From an uncultured delta proteobacterium (GTDB taxonomy: Bacteria > Desulfobacterota > Syntrophobacteria > BM002), in the NCBI GenBank assembly GCA_963712115.1, contig CAVQGX010000031.1:96001-160000 (forward strand): a stretch of 64,000 nt of DNA, read 5' to 3'. Under the pieces are notes generated by a model. The model was not told the DNA's origin and searched no databases. It worked only from the letters and a program-made list of their open reading frames with translations. The translations under genes and the position numbers were made by a program. This document shows positions 53,038-64,000 of the stretch, piece after piece. Position 1 is the stretch's first letter. Each line of letters opens with the position of its first letter.

Positions 53038-55167
53038 ATGAGCGTTCGCTATAAATTTTTGATATTCTTCATGATATTTAGTCTTGCGCCTCTTGTCGTT
53101 GTTACCATAGTAGGCCAACGGGGAATTCTACGAATGGGTGAGACCATATCCGGTTTCGCAAAAAAGAACCGGACAGAAATCGTCAGCAAAGAACTTCAGC
53201 AAACGGCAACGGACTATGCCAAAATACTTGGCCGTGAGAAAGAAGTGCTGGAACTCACACTGAGAATCATTGCCAGAGATGCACAGCGCTTTTTGTCCGA
53301 ACCTCCGAAGGGTGCGGCGAAAGTCTATTTTGCTGACGACTACGACAACCCCGCAAAAGCTCCCAGAGATCTTGTCACTTCTCATAAGCATATCAGAGGT
53401 GCCGCTGGGGAGGGAACCGAACCAATGGTTGTGAGCTTCGGTCACCAGGTCTTTTTGGTCCGACCGGGAGCTGACTGGCGGCATGTGGCAACCGACATTG
53501 GTCGCCTGAGAAGGCTTCTTCCCTTGCACAGTGAGTTTGAGAGCCAATTGGACGACATCCTCTATTGGCAGTATGTCAGCCTGGAGAGCGGCGTTCACGC
53601 AGCCTACCCCGGCCATGGCGGCTATCCTACCGGCTACAACCCACAAACTCGTCCGTGGTATATCTTGGCCAGAGAAAGGGGTGAGTTGGCCTGGAGTACC
53701 CCGTACATAGATGCCTCCACACGTCAGGTCATCATGACTGCCTCTATGCCCATCCGTCACTCTGACGGTTCATTTGCAGGAGTAGCGGCCATCGATGTAC
53801 TTCTTTCAGAGGTTTTACAGGTCCATGAATTATCTTCTCAGTGGTCAACGGCCATGCGCTCCTTTCTCGTCTGGTCAGGGATAAAACAAGAGACCGGTGA
53901 ATACGGCCTCTGGATAATAGCTCGAAAAGACTATGTGGAACATGCCTCTGCCTGGAGCGGCGCGATGGGGGTGGAACGACTAGCATCTTCAGATGTGGAG
54001 ATCATGGAACTGATGGAGGGGGAAATAAAAGCCAGACAAGCCGGCTACATCGATATGCCTTATTTCGGCGTGGATTCTGTCTGGGCCTATGGTCACGCCG
54101 GTGATGACTTGAATCTTATACTCATCGTACCCAAAAGAATCATTTTGGAGGAGTTTGAACGGATACGAGAGTCCTTACATTCAATGGTTAAGGAACAGTG
54201 GCTGGTTACAGGGGTTGTCGCCATTGGAGTGATTCTTTTGCTTATTGTGGTTGGTCTGTGGTTCGCCCACGCCATGATCAGGCCTCTCTTCGTAATGGTT
54301 GAGGGGGTCAAGCGTCTGGCAAAGGGCGATTTCTCTGCACGAATCAATATAAACACAGGCGATGAACGCGATCTGCTGGCCAAGAGCTTCAATGAAATGG
54401 TTCCTCAGCTTGAAGACAGGATACAAATCCGTAAGTCTCTGGAAGTGGCCAAGGAAGTGCAACAAAATCTCCTGCCACAGGAGATACCAAACCTACGGGG
54501 CTTCGACATTGCTGCCAAGAGCGTCTATTGCGACGAGACTGGTGGGGATTACTTCGATTTTTTCCCGTGTGAGGACGAGCATTGCTCCCGCTTTGGCATT
54601 GTAGTCGGTGATGTCACAGGCCATGGAGTTGGAGCGGCCCTACTCATGGCCACTGCTAGAGCGCTCATCAGGGGCTTGGTAACCAGACCAGAGAACCTGG
54701 CCGAGTGTCTAACCCAGGTGAACCGTCTTCTCTCTGCCGATGTGAGGGATAGCGGCAGGTTCATGAGCCTCTTTTTTCTTATGATAGAGGAAGGCTCACC
54801 CACCATTAGCTGGGTGAGAGCCGGACACGATCCGGCTATACTCTTTGATCCCGCCAGGGAGAAAGTGGAGGAACTTGTGGGGCCAGGAATGGTCCTAGGA
54901 GTGGAGGAAGACTATTGTTACGAACAGGTTGACAAGGCTATAGAGACGGACGGAGCAGTTATTCTCATCGGCACCGACGGCATCTGGGAGGCCCACAACT
55001 CTGAGGGAGAGCTGTTCGGCAAAGACCGTCTGCACCAAATAATCCGTGACCATGCTGATAAGTCCGCCGCGGCAATCCAGGGAGCCGTCTTAGATGAAGT
55101 CAGCAAATTTCGCGGCAAACTACCTCAAGAGGATGACATTACAATTGTAGTGATCAAGACCGTGTAA
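53038..55167 (+). CDS. Cache-HAMP-SpoIIE/PP2C serine phosphatase (RsbU-like)
   Basis: YNPQTRPWY Cache, HAMP, GGDYFD, GDVTGHG, TDGIWE, DDITIVV. Confidence 0.9.
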   Translation: MSVRYKFLIFFMIFSLAPLVVVTIVGQRGILRMGETISGFAKKNRTEIVSKELQQTATDYAKILGREKEVLELTLRIIARDAQRFLSEPPKGAAKVYFADDYDNPAKAPRDLVTSHKHIRGAAGEGTEPMVVSFGHQVFLVRPGADWRHVATDIGRLRRLLPLHSEFESQLDDILYWQYVSLESGVHAAYPGHGGYPTGYNPQTRPWYILARERGELAWSTPYIDASTRQVIMTASMPIRHSDGSFAGVAAIDVLLSEVLQVHELSSQWSTAMRSFLVWSGIKQETGEYGLWIIARKDYVEHASAWSGAMGVERLASSDVEIMELMEGEIKARQAGYIDMPYFGVDSVWAYGHAGDDLNLILIVPKRIILEEFERIRESLHSMVKEQWLVTGVVAIGVILLLIVVGLWFAHAMIRPLFVMVEGVKRLAKGDFSARININTGDERDLLAKSFNEMVPQLEDRIQIRKSLEVAKEVQQNLLPQEIPNLRGFDIAAKSVYCDETGGDYFDFFPCEDEHCSRFGIVVGDVTGHGVGAALLMATARALIRGLVTRPENLAECLTQVNRLLSADVRDSGRFMSLFFLMIEEGSPTISWVRAGHDPAILFDPAREKVEELVGPGMVLGVEEDYCYEQVDKAIETDGAVILIGTDGIWEAHNSEGELFGKDRLHQIIRDHADKSAAAIQGAVLDEVSKFRGKLPQEDDITIVVIKTV

Positions 55168-55404
55168 AACTGCCACTTGCTTGAAATTCCCCCTACTTAG
55201 GCAAACCACGAAGACAATAAATGGACAAGAGATGTGCGAAGTGAGATGTGGGATCACACAACTTTGCCTTTTCTTGCATCTCATATCCCACATCACATAT
55301 CCCAAAATTATTGGATGACTGGTTGACTTGCATAGGTGAATTCGGGTATTCATCAGGGGATTGTGACCTCGGTCATGATTTTTTATTTGATAGGAAGAGA
55401 TACC

Positions 55405-56688
55405 ATGGATATCAGCACAGCTGCAAAAGCCGCAAAGGCGGCTGCAATTCAATTGGCCGCCAGCGGAACTGATTTAAAAAACAAGGCACTTGAGGCAATC
55501 GCGGCCGAAATGTGGGCGCACAAAGAAAAAATCCTTGAAGCCAATGACAAGGACCTTGCCTTTAGCCGGGAAAACAACCTCGCGCAACCTCTTTTGAAGA
55601 GGCTAAAATTTGACCAGACAAAGCTTGCTGAGACGATCAGCGGGATTGAGAGCCTCATCGGCTTGCCGGACCCGGTTGGCGTGAGCCTCAGCGCCCGGGA
55701 ACTGGATGAGGGACTGGAGCTTTACCAGGTAACCTGTCCAATTGGGGTGATCGGCGTGATATTTGAATCGCGGCCTGATGCCCTGGTCCAGATTTCAACT
55801 CTTTGTCTGAAGAGCGGCAATGGAGTGCTGCTCAAGGGAGGAAGTGAGGCTGCTCACACCAATCGTGCTCTGGCTGATGTCATTGTCGCAGCGAGCGAAT
55901 CGGCAGGAATACCTGTGGGCTGGCTGCAACTGCTCGAAACCCGGGAGGACGTCAAGGAAATGCTCAAGATGGACGAGAGTATTGATCTCCTAGTTCCCCG
56001 GGGGTCAAACGAGTTTGTCAAGTTTATCATGGACAATTCCAACATTCCTGTCCTTGGGCACGCCGACGGTATCTGCCACGTCTACGTGGATAAAGAAGCA
56101 GATCTGACCATGGCAAGTAACATAGTGGTGGATTCGAAATGTCAGTACGTTGCCGTCTGCAACGCCGCAGAGACACTCCTCGTCCACGAAGCAGTGGCTC
56201 GCGACTTTCTGCCCATGCTGCAGAAAGCCCTTTCCCCCTACAAAGTGGAACTAAGAGGTTGCCCGAAAACGAGGGCGATTATCAAGGTGAAGCCCGCCAC
56301 AGAGGAGGACTGGCGCACCGAATACCTTGATACCATCATGTCAGTCAAGATTGTCACTAGCACGGATGAGGCCATAGAGCACATCAACACCTATGGTTCA
56401 GCTCACACGGATGCGATCGTCACTGCCAACCAAAATACTGCAAACCACTTCACGAACCTGGTAGATTCAGGCAATGTGTTTTGGAACTGCAGTACTCGTT
56501 TTAGTGACGGCTATCGCTACGGGCTAGGCGCCGAGGTGGGCATCAGTACCAGTAAGATCCACGCCCGCGGCCCGGTGGGATTGGAAGGTCTGGTGATCTA
56601 CAAGTGGCAAATCAGGGGTTCCGGACAAATTGTTGCGGACTATGCAGACGGGAGGCGCAAATTCACTCATCGTCCCCTTAAGAAGTAG
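55405..56688 (+). CDS. proA: Gamma-glutamyl phosphate reductase
   Basis: PIGVIGVIFESRP, LKGGSEA, VCNAAETLL, GAEVGISTSKIHARGPVGL. Confidence 0.95.
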   Translation: MDISTAAKAAKAAAIQLAASGTDLKNKALEAIAAEMWAHKEKILEANDKDLAFSRENNLAQPLLKRLKFDQTKLAETISGIESLIGLPDPVGVSLSARELDEGLELYQVTCPIGVIGVIFESRPDALVQISTLCLKSGNGVLLKGGSEAAHTNRALADVIVAASESAGIPVGWLQLLETREDVKEMLKMDESIDLLVPRGSNEFVKFIMDNSNIPVLGHADGICHVYVDKEADLTMASNIVVDSKCQYVAVCNAAETLLVHEAVARDFLPMLQKALSPYKVELRGCPKTRAIIKVKPATEEDWRTEYLDTIMSVKIVTSTDEAIEHINTYGSAHTDAIVTANQNTANHFTNLVDSGNVFWNCSTRFSDGYRYGLGAEVGISTSKIHARGPVGLEGLVIYKWQIRGSGQIVADYADGRRKFTHRPLKK

Positions 56689-56694
56689 TTTGCC

Positions 56695-56733
56695 GTCCGG
56701 ATGTTTCATCAATTGAGGTCGCGAGACCATGAA
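56695..56733. mobile_element. Degenerate truncated end of the 180-bp MITE
   Basis: GTCCGGATGTTTCATCAATTGAGGTCGCGAGACCATGAA vs GCCCGGATATTTCATGAATTGCTGTTGCGAGACCGTGAA. Confidence 0.6.
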
Positions 56734-56741
56734 ATTCGGCG

Positions 56742-57014
56742 CTAATATCTGCTTCTACGCCGCGGACGTTTACCTCGTGGTTCAGCTTGGTTAACCTTTA
56801 TACTGCGACCATTCAAAACCTTACCATTCAAAGCTTTGATCGCCTGGTCAGCTTCCGAGTTGTCTGGCATTTCCACAAAGCCAAACCCCTTAGGTCGTCC
56901 TGAGAACTTATCAGTGATGATTTTAACACTTGACACTTCGCCGAACTCAGAAAAGGCATTTTTCAGATCATTCTCTGTGACGTCATAGGCCAAGTTGCCA
57001 ATATACATATTCAT
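56742..57014 (-). CDS. RRM-domain RNA-binding protein
   Basis: MYIGNL (RNP2), KGFGFVEM (RNP1), Arg-rich tail. Confidence 0.93.
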   Translation of the reverse strand: MNMYIGNLAYDVTENDLKNAFSEFGEVSSVKIITDKFSGRPKGFGFVEMPDNSEADQAIKALNGKVLNGRSIKVNQAEPRGKRPRRRSRY

Positions 57015-57085
57015 AGATGCAATCCTCCATTAACACCCGTTGATTTAATTTGCACTATCAAATAATCAACGGCCCAAAAGGGAAA

Positions 57086-57116
57086 GGGCATCTCGTCTAA
57101 TCTCGGCGAGATGCCC
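57086..57116 (-). terminator. Hairpin after csp gene
   Basis: GGGCATCTCG...CGAGATGCCC followed by TTT on minus strand. Confidence 0.65.
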
Positions 57117-57138
57117 CCATTAAGCGTCTTACCGCCAA

Positions 57139-57339
57139 CTAAATCTTGGTGACGTTCACGGCAGCAGGACCTTTTTGGCCCTGCTCCACATTAAAAGTCA
57201 CACTGTCGCCTTCACTGAGAGATTTGAAACCCGTTGCGTTGATCCCCGAATGGTGAACGAATACATCCGGGCCATCTTCCTGCTCTATGAAGCCGTAGCC
57301 TTTGTGGTCATTAAACCACTTGACAATTCCATTAGCCAT
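57139..57339 (-). CDS. Cold-shock protein
   Basis: [30 protein letters not shown]. Confidence 0.95.
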
Positions 57340-57594
57340 AGTGACACCCTCCTTTCTAAAAAATTCTCATGGTCCCAAACTTGAGGTTGCCACTTTTGAC
57401 AGATGGATCTTCCCCCAGAACGAAACCGGGCCGCCAATAAAGACGGCCCTTTATTGATTGCTTGACGATAACCTACTTCTTCGATGGAAGTCAAATCATT
57501 TATTACTATTTCCTTCTGGAGGTAGCCATGGAAGGAGTTAATTCAGAAGTGCAGTGAGTGAGGAGAACTGGAAATTCAGTTCGATCATTGTGGG

Positions 57595-57695
57595 AGTTTA
57601 TATCCCTTAATCCACACTTCATTCCCCAAAAACCTGGCGCAACATGTAGTGCATTTCTCCAAATAGCAAGAAGTGTAGATTAAAGTATGTAATCT
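57595..57695. repeat. 101-bp inverted-arm element, copy A
   Basis: Left AGTTTATATCCCTTAATCCACACTT, centre CGCAACATGTAGTG, right AAGTGTAGATTAAAGTATGTAATCT. Confidence 0.9.
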
Positions 57696-58016
57696 TCAGT
57701 CCGAGGGCCGATTAAGGCCTTAGATACTACCGACCTAAAAGGTAGTCATCCGAGTGTACATATGACGAGCATATGTCGAATATTCACGGATGATCAAGAC
57801 TTAACCTAAATAGCAGATATTGGAAGTCATAGATCGTAAGACTCATATACAAGAGTTAGAAATGATGGATCTAGATCTGATGAACGGAAATGGTATGGTG
57901 GGGCATTTTAAAATAATACACTGTATGTAATAGAAAAGCTGTTATCATTGGTTGCGCCACTTCTGGATCTCATTCGAATAAACACGCTAGGCTAAGTAGT
58001 AGCTGTCTGCCATCTA

Positions 58017-58814
58017 CTATTTGTATATGTCCGACAAAGGTCGCCGTCGCCTGCCACCCATGATAAGCCCCACGATCCAGCCAAACGTCATAACCCCAGC
58101 ACCGTAGAGAAACCAACGCATATTGCTGGAGGATTGCAGCTTGTCGTAAGTACTCTGCGCTTCCGCGAGCTTCGTCTTCAACTCGGGTAGCTCTGAAGCG
58201 AGCTTTTCTTGAGCTTTCTGCAGTCCCAAGTAATTTGCAGCGCCCTTTTTGAGAGCCTCGTACTTCTTGCTAGTTGCCTCTAGATTCTGCTTGAGTGAGG
58301 CCAACTCTTTCTCGATCCTTTCATTCTCTTGCCCGAGTTCTCGACTACTAGTCTCAATTTCGCTTATTTGTAACTCGAGCCGTTCTTTTTCCTTTGCTAG
58401 TTTTTCGGCAGTGAATTTCCAGGGAGGCCTGTCAGAGATATACCTCTCAAGGGTCCAACCAGTTCGACCATCAGGTAGGCTTACCTGCGCCCAACCGTTC
58501 TCTATTCCGATCATGGTTACCGTTGTACCTATTGGCAATGCAGCTATAATACGATGACTGACATCCGGCCCACTTCGAAGGATAACCTCCAGGGTGGTAT
58601 CTGAGACATAAAGTGTCTCGGCCCAGGCTTTGACGCTGAACAACCATACAGTGAGTAATACTACATGGGCAACAAGTTGAATCGCTTTTCTCAATAGTCG
58701 TCTTTTTCGATGTGTTGTCATTACCCTCTCACATTTCGATGACATCGCAGGCAGCACTATCCAATGACAGAACTTGATCCATTTGGAGTATGACCATAAC
58801 TCTGTAAATCGCAC
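58017..58814 (-). CDS. SH3-domain/coiled-coil membrane protein (TIGR04211/YgiM-like); start uncertain
   Basis: AWAETLYVSD..LRSGP, GWAQV...GW, coiled coil, WFLYGAGV C-terminal TM, RRRR. Confidence 0.88.
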   Translation of the reverse strand: MRFTELWSYSKWIKFCHWIVLPAMSSKCERVMTTHRKRRLLRKAIQLVAHVVLLTVWLFSVKAWAETLYVSDTTLEVILRSGPDVSHRIIAALPIGTTVTMIGIENGWAQVSLPDGRTGWTLERYISDRPPWKFTAEKLAKEKERLELQISEIETSSRELGQENERIEKELASLKQNLEATSKKYEALKKGAANYLGLQKAQEKLASELPELKTKLAEAQSTYDKLQSSSNMRWFLYGAGVMTFGWIVGLIMGGRRRRPLSDIYK

Positions 58815-58947
58815 TATGTCAATAGCTTTAAGGATAGCGAATGAAAATCTTAAACCTTTTGTATTTCACTAATTCCTACGTTTACTTATCTTTTTGAGTC
58901 TTGACCTCATGGGTGGGCAGCATGGAGGGGTGGTGGATGCGGACTTT

Positions 58948-59048
58948 TTATTACATCCCTTAATTCACATTTACAGTTCTAGGGAGCATAGTACTACATC
59001 TTGCGACGGGTCAAAACGGGCGTGAGTGTGGATTAAAGTAATTACTTC
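58948..59048. repeat. 101-bp inverted-arm element, copy B
   Basis: Left TTATTACATCCCTTAATTCACATTT, centre TACTACATCTTGCG, right GAGTGTGGATTAAAGTAATTACTTC. Confidence 0.88.
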
Positions 59049-59227
59049 TTGGAGGGCGGTGCGACTTTAGAGATTGTGGGAAAGTTATTACGCTAGGTAC
59101 ATCATAGTAGGTTTAGTCTTCAGAGATATGGGATACTTCAACCTCCCTTTCCTCTTTATCAGAGATGCAACATTTGCTTTGGCCGACCCATGATTAACTT
59201 GTCATCTACGCAAAACTAGTAAGAACC

Positions 59228-59863
59228 TTATTTATTGATTAGTAGGATAAGCTGATCAGCCAAATCTGGGTCAAGATCTCTTAAAATTTTATATTCTTCC
59301 AGCGCTGATGCCCGGTCACCCTTCCTCAAGTAACACAGCGCCAGAGCATGGCGCGCCTGAGCAAATCCAGGGTTGATAAAGACCGCCTTCTTTAGCACCT
59401 CCATAGCCTTATCGTTAAAGCCAAGTATATTGTATGCTATTCCTAGTCCCAGGTAACCTTGTGCAGAGGTGGGACTTAACTCGATCGTTTTCTTAAAGTA
59501 CGTCAGTGCTTCCTCCCAGTTTTCGAGCCGGGCATAGATAACACCTAAAAAAAAATGGGGCGCTGAAAAATTTGGTTTGATTGCAATAGCATCACTGAAA
59601 GCAACGATAGCTTCCTGCCAACGCCCGAGACTATAATATTTCAATCCCTGATCAACATTTATTGAGGCGAGATAAGGCAGCGTGGGAACTTCCTGCTTGG
59701 CAATCTCATGCTTTTCGCGGATCTTATGGCGTTCGGGATGAGGCGCTATAGCCTCGCAAAATGCTTCTGTAATTGAGGACTGCCAAGTAAAAAGGACAAT
59801 TAAGAGCAATAAAACTGTCTTTGTAACCCCTAAACGCGATGTTATTTGCTTTCCTGGTAACAT
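59228..59863 (-). CDS. Exported tetratricopeptide-repeat protein
   Basis: N-terminal hydrophobic segment, ~4 TPRs, ALEEYKILRDLDP. Confidence 0.85.
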   Translation of the reverse strand: MLPGKQITSRLGVTKTVLLLLIVLFTWQSSITEAFCEAIAPHPERHKIREKHEIAKQEVPTLPYLASINVDQGLKYYSLGRWQEAIVAFSDAIAIKPNFSAPHFFLGVIYARLENWEEALTYFKKTIELSPTSAQGYLGLGIAYNILGFNDKAMEVLKKAVFINPGFAQARHALALCYLRKGDRASALEEYKILRDLDPDLADQLILLINK

Positions 59864-60174
59864 TAGACCTTCTAGATTAAAACGGTGATATCACTCTTCT
59901 TGATTAGACAAAAACCATACCAATTCAAGACCGCGAATAAATTACTTGTTTTCTCCTATACTTAAGAATAATTAGGATGGCAAAAGGGTCTCAAAACCAA
60001 AGTAACTAAGTTCATAGATTTGGCATATTAGTTCCAACATTTAGAAATTTTAGGGATAGGACAGAGCAGGAAAGCTTGGACTGGCACAGGAGGGTACTCG
60101 CTAAGAATAAGAGTGGAAGAGATAGCAAATAAAGGTCATAAATGGAAACCTTATCTCACCCACTTAAAAACTGA

Positions 60175-60275
60175 AGATTACATCCCTTAATTCACACTAT
60201 TGGCTCTAAAGACCCTAGCACAGAATGTGGTACGTGCCCCCGAAGGGGCAAAGTGTAGATTAAAGTATGTTATAT
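60175..60275. repeat. 101-bp inverted-arm element, copy C
   Basis: Left AGATTACATCCCTTAATTCACACTA, centre CACAGAATGTGGTA, right AAGTGTAGATTAAAGTATGTTATAT. Confidence 0.9.
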
Positions 60276-60299
60276 GAAGTCCCACTGGAATCGTAGGAG

Positions 60300-60414
60300 A
60301 GTTTACATTATAACGCTGAAACTTGAATCCAAGGTAAGCTGGTCCATAGCGAGAGAATACAATATGTAGTAGTAAGGTCTCGGACGCTAAAGTTTAGATT
60401 AAAGTATGTAATGT
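60300..60414. repeat. Inverted-arm element, copy D (degenerate left arm)
   Basis: Left AGTTTACATTATAACGCTGAAACTT, centre TACAATATGTAGTA, right AAGTTTAGATTAAAGTATGTAATGT. Confidence 0.8.
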
Positions 60415-60451
60415 TCACTCACCACTGAAAAACCAACGAAGTTGTTAACCC

Positions 60452-60477
60452 CGTCCGACTGCAGCGAGTTGTTGGGC
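60452..60477 (-). other. Truncated integron attC-like half-site
   Basis: Minus strand GCCCAAC-AACTC-GCTGCAG-TCGGACG (RYYYAAC start) ~150 bp downstream of the DUF2254 gene. Confidence 0.55.
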
Positions 60478-60625
60478 GCCAATCTACATGGCACGAATAA
60501 ATTGCGTTTTTTTATCGCTAGTTCTCAGCATGTCGTGCGTATGCTTTCTCAATAATTCAAACAAGGATGTTCCCTACCGCTTACTTACGGCAGCACGACA
60601 CTTCTAATCGCGCGAACTCATTCTG

Positions 60626-61888
60626 CTAAACAGAACTGGCGAATTTCGCCAACTTTCGCACAACCTCCAGGTCTTCAGGAATTTCTAGCACATTTTCTGC
60701 TCTAGCAAGTGCCAAGCGGGAATGGTGTATCGCGGCGTTCCGCATCTCGGCATCTCCGATCGCTGCCAGCGACTCAAACGCCTTTTGTAGCCGCCCCGCG
60801 ACTTCAATGGCACCAGCCCCGTCACGAGCAATCGCTGTGAAGGCATCATCAAACATGTCCCGCAAAGATATTTTGGGCACCTCCACGCGATCACATTCAG
60901 AAATTCGTGTGTCGCCTTCTTCGATAGGCTCACTCCAGAGCGCAAAAAGTCGCACGAACGTTCCAATAATGACGATTGCCGTACCGGGATCATTGACAGC
61001 AGGTGACAACGCTCGACTTGCGATTTCAGAAAGAACGATAAGACCGAATCGAGGATCTTCGTCGAATTGTCTGTCATTACCGAGCACAAATGCCTGTGCT
61101 ATCTGACTTGCATCGATATCAGAAAAATCACCTGAGTCTGCGGTCACATAGGCAAGAGCCCGGCCCGGCGCAGAAAAAGTACCGGGCAAGGCTGCTACCG
61201 TGATTCGTACCCGCGATTTTTCCGCATACGTCTGTAGCGCAGTGACATCTACGCGCTGTACATATCCGATCGACCCGCTGTAAATGGCGTGACCCCTATT
61301 CTGACGCCACCCCGCAGGGACGCCGCAAAGGGTAGGTGCGCATCGCCTTCGCTGTAAAGCAGCAGCAGTCGCTGCCTCAACCTTATCGATGGTTCCCCTG
61401 AGGCGCCCAAGGCGTGCGATGCGATCCACCCAACTCACGAACGTAATAATAACCATGGCAAGAATCATTAACGTTAGAGCAAATAACGCGAAACGGCCTG
61501 CTCTATCGTAATAGCCATTCTTTAAGGCGATAAGCGCGACGATGCTGAAGATGAAGGCACCAATAAAGGTCGAGAGAGCGTTCTGGGAAACGTCGTCGGA
61601 GATGACCAGAGAAAAAGAGCGCGGCGTTGCGGTGCTGCTGGCCGAAGCATAGGCGGAAACCATCGATGCGACAGCAAAGGTGGCGATCACCAACATGCTT
61701 GCGGAAATAATGGTAAGCAGGGTCTCTATTGAGTCTGGAGTAATCGCCGGAACAAGCTGACCGATTTCGGTATTGTCCACCGTCTTCGCAAGGAACACTA
61801 AGCCCGTTGACAGCACGCACATCGCGAGAGGCCTGACCCATAGCCGCTCTCTGATGCGGTTTAGAAGGAACCTCAATCGATCACCCAT
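60626..61888 (-). CDS. DUF2254 membrane protein
   Basis: ASSTATPR, LSTFIGAFIFS, DPRFGLIVLSEIASRALSPAVNDPGTA, IARDGAG; ATG with GGAG RBS. Confidence 0.9.
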   Translation of the reverse strand: MGDRLRFLLNRIRERLWVRPLAMCVLSTGLVFLAKTVDNTEIGQLVPAITPDSIETLLTIISASMLVIATFAVASMVSAYASASSTATPRSFSLVISDDVSQNALSTFIGAFIFSIVALIALKNGYYDRAGRFALFALTLMILAMVIITFVSWVDRIARLGRLRGTIDKVEAATAAALQRRRCAPTLCGVPAGWRQNRGHAIYSGSIGYVQRVDVTALQTYAEKSRVRITVAALPGTFSAPGRALAYVTADSGDFSDIDASQIAQAFVLGNDRQFDEDPRFGLIVLSEIASRALSPAVNDPGTAIVIIGTFVRLFALWSEPIEEGDTRISECDRVEVPKISLRDMFDDAFTAIARDGAGAIEVAGRLQKAFESLAAIGDAEMRNAAIHHSRLALARAENVLEIPEDLEVVRKLAKFASSV

Positions 61889-62255
61889 TACTCCACTTCC
61901 CGTAGTTCGGTATGACGGTCCGCTACAGATCTCTTTTCCGGTGGTCAAATTAGTCGGCAGGAATCCTTTTCGCATGTAGAGTTCTACAGTGCATGTTGAT
62001 TATTACTAACATCTGTTTAGGTAGAAAGCAAACGTTTACCACTCTTGACGCCCAACCTTGAATTATACGGCGTATTATCCGCTTTATAATGCGGAAAGTC
62101 TCATACGCATATCGTAAATTGTGAAAAAATACAGCTACTTGTTTGATAACACTCACGATATTGAAAACGAAAAATATCGAAACCGACATCCGCTCTGATC
62201 ACAACCAAAAATACCCGGACAGACTTCCGCAAGAAAAGGGCCATTGCAAAACTAT

Positions 62256-62361
62256 AAATTACATCCCTTAATTCCCACTCCCGGCGTTGACGAGTCTAGC
62301 ACGAAATATGGGGGTCGTTCAACAAGGGGCCCACTTACGTGTGGATCGAGTTATATAAAGT
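62256..62361. repeat. Inverted-arm element, copy E
   Basis: Left AAATTACATCCCTTAATTCCCACTC, centre CACGAAATATGGGG, right ACGTGTGGATCGAGTTATATAAAGT. Confidence 0.8.
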
Positions 62362-62385
62362 TTCCTATTGGTTTGCTAGGAGTAA

Positions 62386-62487
62386 ACATAACATCCCTTA
62401 ATTTAAACTTGACCGGAGGTTCATTCTACACAATATGTTGAGAGTAGTAATGTCCGGACACTTTAGGGGGATTAACTGCTGATTTAA
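62386..62487. repeat. Inverted-arm element, copy F (degenerate right arm)
   Basis: Left ACATAACATCCCTTAATTTAAACTT, centre CACAATATGTTGAG, right residual GGGGATTAA. Confidence 0.75.
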
Positions 62488-62501
62488 TAAATATGTACTT
62501 A

Positions 62502-62681
62502 GCCCGGATATTTCATGAATTGCTGTTGCGAGACCGTGAAGATGGGCGTGCCACCTGGCAACCGCAGCGTGTTGGTTCCGAGGCGTACCTGAAAGGTACG
62601 TCGCAGGGACCGACACCCGAGGACGCCAGGAAGGACGGCCATATCCGCGGTCGCAGCAGGTGATTCATGAAATATCCGGGC
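62502..62681. mobile_element. MITE, 180 bp, TA-flanked (copy 2, inverted relative to copy 1)
   Basis: Same perfect 19-bp TIRs, 10 substitutions vs 36278-36457. Confidence 0.92.
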
Positions 62682-62740
62682 TAGTGTTTAGTGCCAGGTT
62701 GAAATAGCTGCCCGCTGTCTGCTGCCTGCTGGGTGAGTGC

Positions 62741-63337
62741 CTAGTGTTCTCCAAACCCCGCCCTTTGCACCAACGCACTTACCACGGACTCATACAGCTC
62801 TCTGCTGCCAGTGAGAAGCTGTTCTAGTCTGTCTTGATACTCATTCCTCTCGGGAGATGCTTCCATGAGACTGAGATTGGCTTGAGCAATTCGATGAGCA
62901 CCACTTATCGTGGCCCTTAGGAGCTCACAGACAACCAAAAGATCTGAAAGTAGATGGCCCTTACAGTGCACCCCCGCCCTGGCCACGAAATTGACGGCTT
63001 CATTGGCCTCTTCCATTATGCTAATGGGGCATTCGATTGCCTGCTGCAGCGCCTCCAAGACCTCTGTCTTGCCTTTTCCGAAGGTCTTGGCCTGGGCAAA
63101 ACGCGCATAGGCCCTGCCGTCTTCATCACGGAGATGGAGAAGAGTACTCAATGATTTTTTCACCTCCTGGAGCAAATTCCTCCATTCAGCTTCAGAGGAG
63201 TCGCGGCTACGCTGAAGTTCCACCTGAACGATTTTTTCTAGCAGCGCCAAACCCACACATGCCCCATGGGCTGCTGCGGCACCGCCTCCGGGCACAGGAT
63301 ACGGTCTGGCAAGAGCGTCTATGAACGAATCAACCAT
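62741..63337 (-). CDS. Formiminotetrahydrofolate cyclodeaminase/cyclohydrolase family protein
   Basis: FIDALARPYPVPGGGAAAA, DEDGRAY, LLSDL. Confidence 0.82.
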   Translation of the reverse strand: MVDSFIDALARPYPVPGGGAAAAHGACVGLALLEKIVQVELQRSRDSSEAEWRNLLQEVKKSLSTLLHLRDEDGRAYARFAQAKTFGKGKTEVLEALQQAIECPISIMEEANEAVNFVARAGVHCKGHLLSDLLVVCELLRATISGAHRIAQANLSLMEASPERNEYQDRLEQLLTGSRELYESVVSALVQRAGFGEH

Positions 63338-63505
63338 AATTTCCTTCCCGGGCCATCACCTATGATGTTTGACTGCATTGTTGTTAATGCTTATCAGAGA
63401 TTAACTTATGGATACAGCAAAATATTAATTATTGGTGATTCTCTTTGATTGCCAGAGAATACAAAATACCGGGTAAAATATCATATCGAAAAAGGAGTCT
63501 CGAAT

Positions 63506-64000
63506 ATGAAAGCCTTAGCAATCAACGAGTTCGGCGGACTAGATAAATTGCAACTCATGGATCTACCCGTGCCGGAAATCAGACCAGGGGAGATTTTAGT
63601 TAAAGTGAGAGCGGCCGGGGTCAATCCTGTAGACTGGAAGATTCGGGAGGGCTATCTCAAAGATCTTTTTAGCCATCAGTTTCCCGTTATTCTGGGGTGG
63701 GATGCGGCTGGCGTTGTGGAAGGGGTAGGCAAGAACGTAACGAGATTTAAGTCAGGGGATGAGATTTTTGCCTACTGCCGCAAGCCCATTGTCCACGGGG
63801 GAGCATACGCGGAATACATTTTGCTGGAAGAAGAGCATGCCGCTATAAAACCGAAAAATATTACCTTTGAGGAGGCAGCCTCAATTCCACTTGCTGCACT
63901 AACTGCTTACCAGTCACTATTCGATGCGGCAAATCTCCAGCCAGGAGAAACCATTTTAATCCATGCTGCTGCAGGAGGAGTAGGAGGCTTCGGGGTACAG
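63506..64000 (+). CDS. NADP-dependent quinone oxidoreductase (MDR family), runs off window
   Basis: Manual translation MKALAINEFGG...AAGVNPVDWKIREG...ILGWDAAG...LTAYQ...HAAAGGVGG; AAGGAG RBS. Confidence 0.9.
   Translation, partial: MKALAINEFGGLDKLQLMDLPVPEIRPGEILVKVRAAGVNPVDWKIREGYLKDLFSHQFPVILGWDAAGVVEGVGKNVTRFKSGDEIFAYCRKPIVHGGAYAEYILLEEEHAAIKPKNITFEEAASIPLAALTAYQSLFDAANLQPGETILIHAAAGGVGGFGVQ

Follow-up and report, generated by a model that had tools for sequence, protein, structure and literature searches.

Two types of short sites bound gene cassettes in an uncultured Syntrophobacteria genome and are candidate heterospecific exchange sites for a tyrosine recombinase

A 64,000-nucleotide (nt) stretch of contig CAVQGX010000031.1 (positions 96,001 to 160,000 of the forward strand; assembly GCA_963712115.1, uncultured Desulfobacterota, Syntrophobacteria), referred to as the window, carries six short elements, A to F, which lie between positions 57590 and 62410 and separate genes encoded on the minus strand. 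Do these elements act as folded single strands, as duplex sites or as something other than recombination substrates? An intact element is composed of a minus-strand arm with the core TAAGGG, followed 51–53 nt rightward by a plus-strand arm with the core TAAAGT. The initial annotation, made from the letters of the window, had described each arm as a 9-6-9 dyad and had proposed either a folded single-strand substrate of the kind known from integron attC sites and the attP site of phage CTX, or pairs of core sites that are incompatible with each other and serve a Xer-like recombinase. The arm sequences it quoted are present at their places, with TAAGGG in all five intact left arms (A, B, C, E and F) and TAAAGT in all four intact right arms (A, B, C and D).

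We favour, with a probability of about 0.55, the reading that the arms are double-stranded, heterospecific cassette-exchange sites for a tyrosine recombinase, divided into two mutually incompatible types. Each arm would be a duplex core-type site in which half-sites of ~11 base pairs (bp), AGTGTGRATTA and TAATnTnnAnT, are placed in inverted orientation around an asymmetric centre of 7 bp, which reads AGGGATG in one version (G type) and AAGTATG in the other (A type). Sites of like type would recombine with each other, and G and A sites would not do so because their central regions differ at two of seven positions. Since G sites point one way and A sites the other, a cassette could be found in two situations: between a G site and an inverted A site it would be exchangeable, being neither excised nor inverted, and between two direct G sites it would be excisable as a circle. 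The loop of 51 or 107 bp that separates an A site from the next G site would be a tiny module itself. Of the incompatible core sites proposed at the outset, the two types, their orientation and the swaps between copies fit the data described below; a Xer-like enzyme would be the probable agent.

Site types, orientation and crossover positions

The source genome (G000) is a 4.9-Mb draft in 70 contigs with 6% contamination, and the window is part of its contig C31. Site positions are numbered from 1 to 29 in an 11-7-11 register, the G sites of the window being read on the minus strand. Arms were scored with a matrix that disregards both type-specific positions (13 and 15); those reaching at least 13 bits genome-wide were then typed by the letters at these two positions. 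In the window, the right-arm pattern had three matches and the left-arm pattern four (up to three mismatches), with none expected from 100 shuffles, and a degenerate 14-nt core pattern had nine matches compared with 0.42 expected. At a threshold of at least 14 bits, the genome contained 175 arms and a reversed-sequence control 5. Lowering the threshold to 13 bits gave 184 arms genome-wide, comprising 104 with G..G, 60 with A..T and 20 with other letters. The core asymmetry was kept in a larger alignment of 448 arms, drawn from the source genome and from loci fetched from other genomes, in which 276 arms were G..G and 140 A..T, with hybrid letters in six (5 A..G, 1 G..T). The sites thus come in two types.

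The 9-6-9 placement of the dyad itself was not the best one. In an information-weighted measure, the best symmetry axis was position 15.0 for both types (3.33 for G and 3.91 for A sites; column-shuffle P = 0.046 and 0.006, respectively), compared with 1.94 and 2.53 for the next-best centres, 0.4 and 1.73 for axis 15.5 and only 0.84 and 0.81 for the axis of the 9-6-9 reading (12.5), which lies 2.5 nt further in. Mean agreement between half-sites was 6.7–6.8 of 11 positions in the 11-7-11 register versus 4.0 of 9 in the 9-6-9 register. Because symmetry and half-site agreement both favour axis 15, the site is best written as AGTGTGRATTA / ARGKATG / TAATnTnnAnT, and as this axis falls on a base, the centre should have an odd length. 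The left half-site is strongly conserved, the right half-site at TAAT, A27 and T29. The two core differences (positions 13 and 15) lie inside the central 7 bp, and a third type-specific difference concerns arm position 7, where G sites have A and A sites have G or C.

Arms were grouped into 48 regions of the source genome, many of them at contig ends. Orientation was uniform in 31 of the 33 multi-site regions, with G sites pointing one way and A sites the opposite way; the rule was broken in the other two. At C28:12247-14320, a cassette lies between two inverted A sites at a point where the orientation of the array switches, as expected of what an A x A inversion would leave. Pairs of facing arms were heterotypic in 24 of 25 cases in the source genome and in 57 of 63 overall. 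They fell into two size classes of 99–102 nt (42 pairs) and 155–159 nt (21 pairs), the latter containing a terminator-like hairpin. Many G sites stand without such a partner, and upstream of these solo sites a variable terminator hairpin precedes a conserved block, CCATATCTTGTGCCAGATTAAATTCCAGC, most of the sites being situated 40–60 nt past the hairpin. The block (e.g. at C42:2237 and C53:18761) has a second GATTAAA-like motif ~23 nt upstream of the site's own and could be an accessory binding site. No convincing −35/−10 promoter pair was noticed in the conserved G block, as judged by eye alone without a scan.

The comparison within the genus covered the source genome and 17 others (18 in total), among which G002 and G013 are single-contig genomes. 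The G-type 21-mer was present in 16 of the 17 others, as well as in the single genome from a sister genus, and it was not found in 23 searched genomes of other genera and families. Public contigs with matches belonged to uncultured Desulfobacterota, Syntrophobacteria and similar bins. Three genomes of other orders (loci L036, L078 and L027) had one or two G sites each, one of these sites being located beside a run of N. A literature search, supplementary files aside, yielded no paper on these arrays; all that it retrieved concerned dif modules of Acinetobacter, integrons and elements that exploit Xer.

Copies of many cassettes are found on other contigs, in different neighbourhoods and at 90–100% identity, and they part company inside sites of both types. 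For G sites, seven pairs had the inner side alone in common and five the outer side alone, the first differences being at position 20 or 23 in one direction and at −2 or −1 in the other. For A sites, four pairs shared the side of the upstream gene alone, and 16 pairs exceeded the threshold for sharing of the loop alone. About five of the latter read as clear cases, one of them being element C compared with C28:12247-12347; many of the remaining pairs were similar long-class loops. The A-site breaks lay past position 11 and short of position 20. Taken over both types, the mosaic breaks were bounded by 11|12 and 19|20, and none was seen outside positions 0–19, though the conserved block spans ~60 nt. 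We infer a crossover interval of positions 12–19, which would cover the central 7 bp of the 11-7-11 dyad and which the loci of other genomes did not narrow further; the differences between the two site types fall in or beside it. Because the breaks map inside both G and A arms, the loop, the upstream cassette and the downstream cassette would represent three separately exchangeable pieces. Contig C4 carries a three-way mosaic element with its junction within AAGTATGT. In addition, two sediment runs have Logan contigs in which the outer flank of the element A G site adjoins the inner side of the element F G site, with the junction inside ATCCCTTAAT (most arm joints in the Logan contigs had sides of 22–24 nt and were ignored as repeat artefacts). 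This joint would be the product expected from a G x G deletion of the whole array.

Relation to the integron and alternative explanations

A genuine integron integrase (IntI) is encoded on contig C27 of the source genome (profile TIGR02249, 486.9 bits versus a cut-off of 265). In the cassettes adjoining IntI, the repeat is a different one, which has canonical CCTAAC...GTTAGG ends and is designated family 1, with the G- and A-type sites forming family 2. All three full family-1 copies of the source genome are located beside IntI. Four of the 18 genomes of the genus had an IntI above the cut-off. Family-1 attC sites were present in the IntI flanks of the other three IntI-positive genomes (3/3), and no family-2 arm was found in their fetched IntI loci; the family-1 pattern occurred in all four IntI-positive genomes and, in one to five copies, in 5 of the 14 others. 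Family-2 sites were abundant independently of IntI, with 56 in G005 and 32 in G009, which are without IntI, and 10 in G004, 10 in G014 and 7 in G012, which possess it. Since IntI adjoins a different, canonical attC family here and in three of three other genomes, the family-2 sites appear not to be the attC sites of this genome, and their cassette system appears to be separate from the classical integron. The two systems have met repeatedly, as judged from six separate fusions in which a family-2 element is joined, at one identical point outside the A site, to the 5' half of a family-1 attC site (60417-60476 on the minus strand of the window, C27:118283, C42:183916, C54:12876, C54:16755 and C60:7135). 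The genes upstream of the six fusions are unrelated. Reading by eye also gave the impression, and no more, that the family-1 loop faintly resembles the A site.

In the hairpin account, the unit of A site, loop and G site would extrude as a strand-marking hairpin with mismatches at positions 7, 13 and 15 and be recombined as single-stranded DNA by IntI or XerCD. The arms of an element are indeed inverted, and all 53 unique A-G pairs were mismatched at positions 13 and 15, just seven of them agreeing at position 7. The two fixed lengths (~101 and ~157 nt) moreover recall the homogeneous attC lengths of chromosomal integrons, and the arrays resemble cassette arrays, with the longest open reading frame (ORF) running in the direction of the G site in 57 of 71 cassettes. 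Elements A and C folded as DNA at −10 to −15 kcal/mol, better than shuffles (z −1.9 to −3.3), but element B formed no hairpin (−3 kcal/mol, z +1.4), and the unpaired places in the folds were symmetric internal loops, not bulges. Among 100 G sites with enough flank, moreover, a recognisable upstream A arm was found for 26, and a search for the site's own complement gave a score of at least 11 for 25, compared with 7 and 2 of 100 in two control regions; 70 were solo by both criteria, with no complementary arm within 230 nt. Pairing of the arms, for which covariation had been named as the check, left no trace at the variable positions: the 53 unique pairs gave 941 matches versus 939.6 ± 6.4 after shuffling of partners (P = 0.43), with a weak excess of agreement at position 4 alone (47 vs 43.5, P = 0.01). 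The A-arm crossovers are likewise unpredicted by the attC mechanism, which has one crossover, in R'. With most G sites solo, no covariation, weak folds and crossovers in both arms, a folded substrate is improbable, and this part of the initial annotation is not supported. We give similarly little credence to the idea that the sites are divergent attC sites, or integrase-less attC clusters, served by the genome's IntI. The presence of a genuine IntI and the six fusions to canonical attC halves, one of them in the window, would agree with it, and absence of IntI is not decisive alone, given that about half of the attC clusters without integrase are found in IntI-less genomes, as stated in PMC4889954. 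The same paper describes, for attC, a conserved AAC/GTT triplet in the R boxes and complementary arms (R''-L'' and L'-R') whose fold has extrahelical bases and, at its centre, an unpaired spacer (PMC4889954). In family 2, however, positions 18–20 are GTA in 61 of 100 G and 28 of 60 A sites and GTT in only 12 and 7, respectively, and AAC occupied the mirrored part in 2 of 100 G and 3 of 60 A sites. The cassettes close to IntI carry the canonical family in four of four genomes, and the non-coding parts of family-2 cassettes are long (median leader 331 nt, median trailer 179 nt), many including a terminator of their own. Family 2 therefore lacks the AAC/GTT triplet, the foldable arm pair (the second arm being absent from most sites), the association with IntI and the single R' crossover that mark attC membership.

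Two further explanations dispense with site-specific recombination of the arms. The sites may be protein-binding sites or signals for the start or end of transcripts, composed of a terminator and an operator-like dyad, with the mosaics arising from homologous recombination or gene conversion. The terminator-like hairpins and the further conserved block upstream of solo G sites would suit such a role, as would the maintenance of sites in genomes without an extra recombinase, and the resolution of the breakpoints is limited. This explanation is nonetheless unlikely, since the sites are concentrated in arrays whose genes are variable and unrelated, and not upstream of a regulon, since cassettes recur in different neighbourhoods with breaks at the sites, and since the breaks keep to positions 0–19 of a conserved block about three times as long; nor is there an obvious regulatory reason for the G/A inversion rule combined with two discrete spacings. 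Even less can be said for small non-autonomous transposable elements, that is, miniature inverted-repeat transposable elements with unlike ends or doublets of repetitive extragenic palindromes (REPs) moved by a Y1 transposase of the REP-associated tyrosine transposase (RAYT) type. Units of ~100 nt with inverted ends and many copies recall these elements, and a Y1_Tnp-domain gene was present in five of five genomes searched, in one or few copies in the genus. The elements showed no target-site duplication, however, a 3-mer being common in at most four of 25 and four or more bases in at most one of 25; the breaks lie inside the arms and not at their outer ends, 70% of the G arms are solo, and element C had no match in the plasmid and phage collections. 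A RAYT was rejected for the reason that the Y1 gene is not flanked by family-2 arms: within ±4 kb of it, there was one weak match of 11.4 bits, 1.4 kb upstream, in G002 and none of at least 7 bits in G013. Transposition of this kind is thus highly improbable. The Y1 protein of G002 (C1:614713-615720; locus L159 3714-4721) has 335 amino acids and an N-terminal Y1 transposase domain.

Candidate recombinases and comparable systems

In the preferred reading, duplex exchange at two incompatible site types, the reaction would most probably be catalysed by the XerC and XerD of the host, XerD binding the outer half-site, a step on which we place somewhat less than half of our total belief. XerCD is the leading candidate because of exclusion and a moderate likeness of one half-site. 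The single-contig genomes G002 and G013 both contain family-2 sites and have just two matches each to the tyrosine recombinase family PF00589, which are XerD-like and XerC-like by size and score. The array of G002 comprises 10 arms in 8.6 kb and is flanked by genes for a BON-domain protein, a multihaem cytochrome, a cupin and a response regulator. In the source genome, the two Xer proteins, whose genes are on contigs C30 and C62, exceed the curated XerD and XerC cut-offs. The dif site of the genus reads TAGTCTGATAA-TGTATA-TTATGTAAACT and, with this spacer, occurred as a single copy in 16 of the 18 genomes. Its XerD arm fits best at positions 19–29, in the correct orientation, with 11.7 bits for G sites (P = 0.008 versus shuffled arms) and 10.2 bits for A sites (P = 0.027), the two tests not being independent; for A sites, the 9-6-9 register (start position 14) was second best at 9.0 bits. 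The earlier remark that the outer half-sites resemble XerD arms is thereby borne out to a moderate degree. A second dif-like site, with the genus dif arms around the spacer TTAATC, was seen at G000 C49:23179, G002:C1:280948 and G016:C48:5156, the copy in G002 being inverted and 8.6 kb away from dif.

Other enzymes were considered and set aside. IntI was rejected on the grounds that its cassettes carry family 1 and that family-2 abundance is independent of it, and a serine recombinase on the grounds that PF00239 was found in none of five genomes searched. As for a dedicated integrase, a tyrosine recombinase of 417 amino acids encoded on C39 had relatives in just 3 of the 17 other genomes and in neither array-bearing single-contig genome. 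Related tyrosine recombinases of ~415 amino acids with an N-terminal cysteine motif are encoded at C39:10724-11977 and C11:84757-85995 (the latter with an internal stop), and in both places the gene lies at an array start and is transcribed in the direction leading away from the first G site.

Several points weigh against duplex exchange by XerCD. The XerC arm of dif had no significant match (P = 0.20 for G and 0.41 for A sites), the whole 28-nt dif site did not align (P = 0.28 and 0.38), for which reason a hand count of ~16 identities in 28 at one register was given no weight, and symmetry favours a centre of 7 bp versus 6 in dif; that an enzyme binds or cuts family-2 sites is itself something that we infer from sequence. 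Informative positions are few, the crossover interval being bounded by a single pair at position 11 and by four to six at position 20. Similar mosaics could arise by homologous recombination inside the conserved stretch of 25–60 nt, and the C32/C53 pair has a rare C at position 20 in common despite differing downstream sides. Near-identical copies may derive from different strains in a 70-contig draft with 6% contamination, and the Logan joint, of modest depth (6.1 and 3.9), may be another strain's own arrangement. Finally, the orthologous locus lacks any site or cassette in G016 and G006 and has one degenerate G site in G007. From the empty locus in G016 and G006, it would follow that arrays arise at new loci.

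A wider proposal, which we put forward tentatively and regard as doubtful, is that XerC/XerD carry out integrase-free cassette exchange at the scale of the chromosome on the two heterospecific sites, alongside the integron and occasionally recombining with it, as suggested by the attC-half fusions. Cassettes with a G site at one end and an inverted A site at the other would then be exchangeable for those of another array, of a sister chromosome or of incoming DNA, being neither lost nor flipped.

Integrons are the textbook route by which bacteria stockpile and shuffle single-gene cassettes, and dif modules are, to our knowledge, a recent second example, so far reported from Acinetobacter only. 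These modules (pdif, XerC/XerD) appear to be the closest known system. As described in PMC13141974, they have unlike half-sites around a 6-bp spacer, with the XerC sides and the XerD sides facing inward in alternation (C and D modules), partner choice depends on spacer identity, and some modules are gene-less; islands of several modules occur on plasmids and chromosomes, according to PMC13141974 and PMC12907356. Family 2 shares with them short sites with unlike half-sites and a short spacer, which bound modules of one or a few genes in inverse orientation, cassettes with XerD-like halves inward and loops with the other halves inward, breaks at the centres and no dedicated recombinase nearby. 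The 6 hybrid centres among 448 arms would also agree with a spacer rule. Unlike dif modules, the family-2 arrays belong to another phylum, are chromosomal and reach a far larger scale (~100 or more sites per genome), with exactly two spacer versions, each tied to one orientation. Most of their sites are in direct repeat (solo G) as opposed to the standard alternation, their inner half bears no likeness to the XerC arm of the host dif, their centre looks 7 and not 6 bp long, and their dependence on Xer is a prediction from the sites. Elements that exploit Xer (CTX, TLC and VGJ type) are described as hijacking host XerCD at dif-like sites in place of a dedicated integrase, as family 2 would do in the preferred reading. 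They integrate at chromosomal dif, whereas family-2 sites occupy many loci away from dif and their arrays hold ordinary cellular genes.

Like integron arrays, the family-2 arrays consist of long, one-directional series of single-gene cassettes and of ~100-nt units with inverted ends, in a genome that also has a true integron. The ends of attC are reportedly 'simple sites' of two inverted binding boxes each, a description said to go back to Stokes and colleagues in 1997. Family-2 sites differ from attC in having no AAC/GTT triplet and no bulged bases, in usually missing the second arm and in showing crossovers in both arms; their cassettes differ from integron cassettes by long leaders, their own terminators and no linkage to IntI. 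In engineered cassette exchange with Cre or Flp, heterospecific spacer variants of lox or FRT flank a cassette, like variants recombine and unlike ones do not, and the cassette is swapped without loss or flipping. The G and A sites on either side of a family-2 cassette likewise share their arms and differ in the spacer; unlike the man-made arrangement, this one is natural, and its spacer incompatibility is suggested by the near absence of hybrids (6 of 448).

The arrays thus place a genus of uncultured Desulfobacterota, from marine and estuarine sediment according to record titles and run labels, among the bearers of large cassette arrays, with sites that are neither attC nor plain copies of dif. 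As judged from the two single-contig genomes and from the absence of PF00239 in five of five genomes, XerC and XerD appear to be the sole site-specific recombinases of array-bearing genomes. If XerCD drives the exchange, Xer-based cassette shuffling would be phylogenetically widespread and extend up to the scale of integrons, the two-spacer design would be a natural counterpart of engineered heterospecific exchange, and bacteria would have a second, independent route to integron-like gene shuffling. Integron finders based on attC structure would probably overlook family-2 arrays.

Cassettes and neighbouring elements of the window

Element A, at the left end of the array, comprises a G-type site at 57590..57618 on the minus strand (central region ~57601-57607), which is the last site of the array and faces a csp gene, and, separated from it by a 53-nt loop, an A-type site at 57672..57700 on the plus strand (central region ~57683-57689). 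Between elements A and B lies a cassette ORF for an SH3-domain/coiled-coil protein (58017..58814, minus strand). Element B, for which no hairpin fold was obtained, has its G-type site at 58943..58971 (minus strand) and its A-type site, with a divergent outer half, at 59025..59053 (plus strand). A cassette ORF for a TPR-repeat protein (59228..59863, minus strand) lies between it and element C, which has a G-type site at 60170..60198 (minus strand) and an A-type site at 60252..60280 (plus strand). The loop of element C is near-identical to that of the element at C28:12247-12347, and the flanks diverge from arm position 20. In element D, a degenerate G-like site, recognised by direct reading, has lost its central part (60295..60323, minus strand), and an A-type site is located at 60391..60419 (plus strand). 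Directly outside the latter is fused the 5' half (R''-L'' side) of a canonical family-1 attC site (60417..60476, minus strand). A cassette ORF for a DUF2254 membrane protein (60626..61975, minus strand) fills the space between elements D and E. Element E comprises a G-type site at 62251..62279 (minus strand) and a degenerate A-like site at 62338..62366 (plus strand), also read directly, whose inner half is retained and whose centre is altered. Element F has a G-type site at 62381..62409 (minus strand), its partner region being broken by an inverted-repeat insert of 182 nt.

This insert (62499-62680), which interrupts element F, has terminal inverted repeats of ~21 nt (TAGCCCGGATATTTCATGAAT...). 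An allele without it was found in contigs of four of four runs (joint 62498>62681). In sediment metagenomes, its depth was 100–500 times that of the surroundings, with many different flanks, and it looks like a very abundant small mobile element.

The csp gene (57083-57537) follows directly after the last G site. A search of positions 55000-64000 against Rfam left the repeats unmatched and returned only a sub-threshold match of the csp leader to the cspA thermoregulator (57083-57452, 29.2 bits versus a gathering score of 78). The csp unit of 450 nt recurs many times, at 70–91% identity, in the source genome and its relatives.

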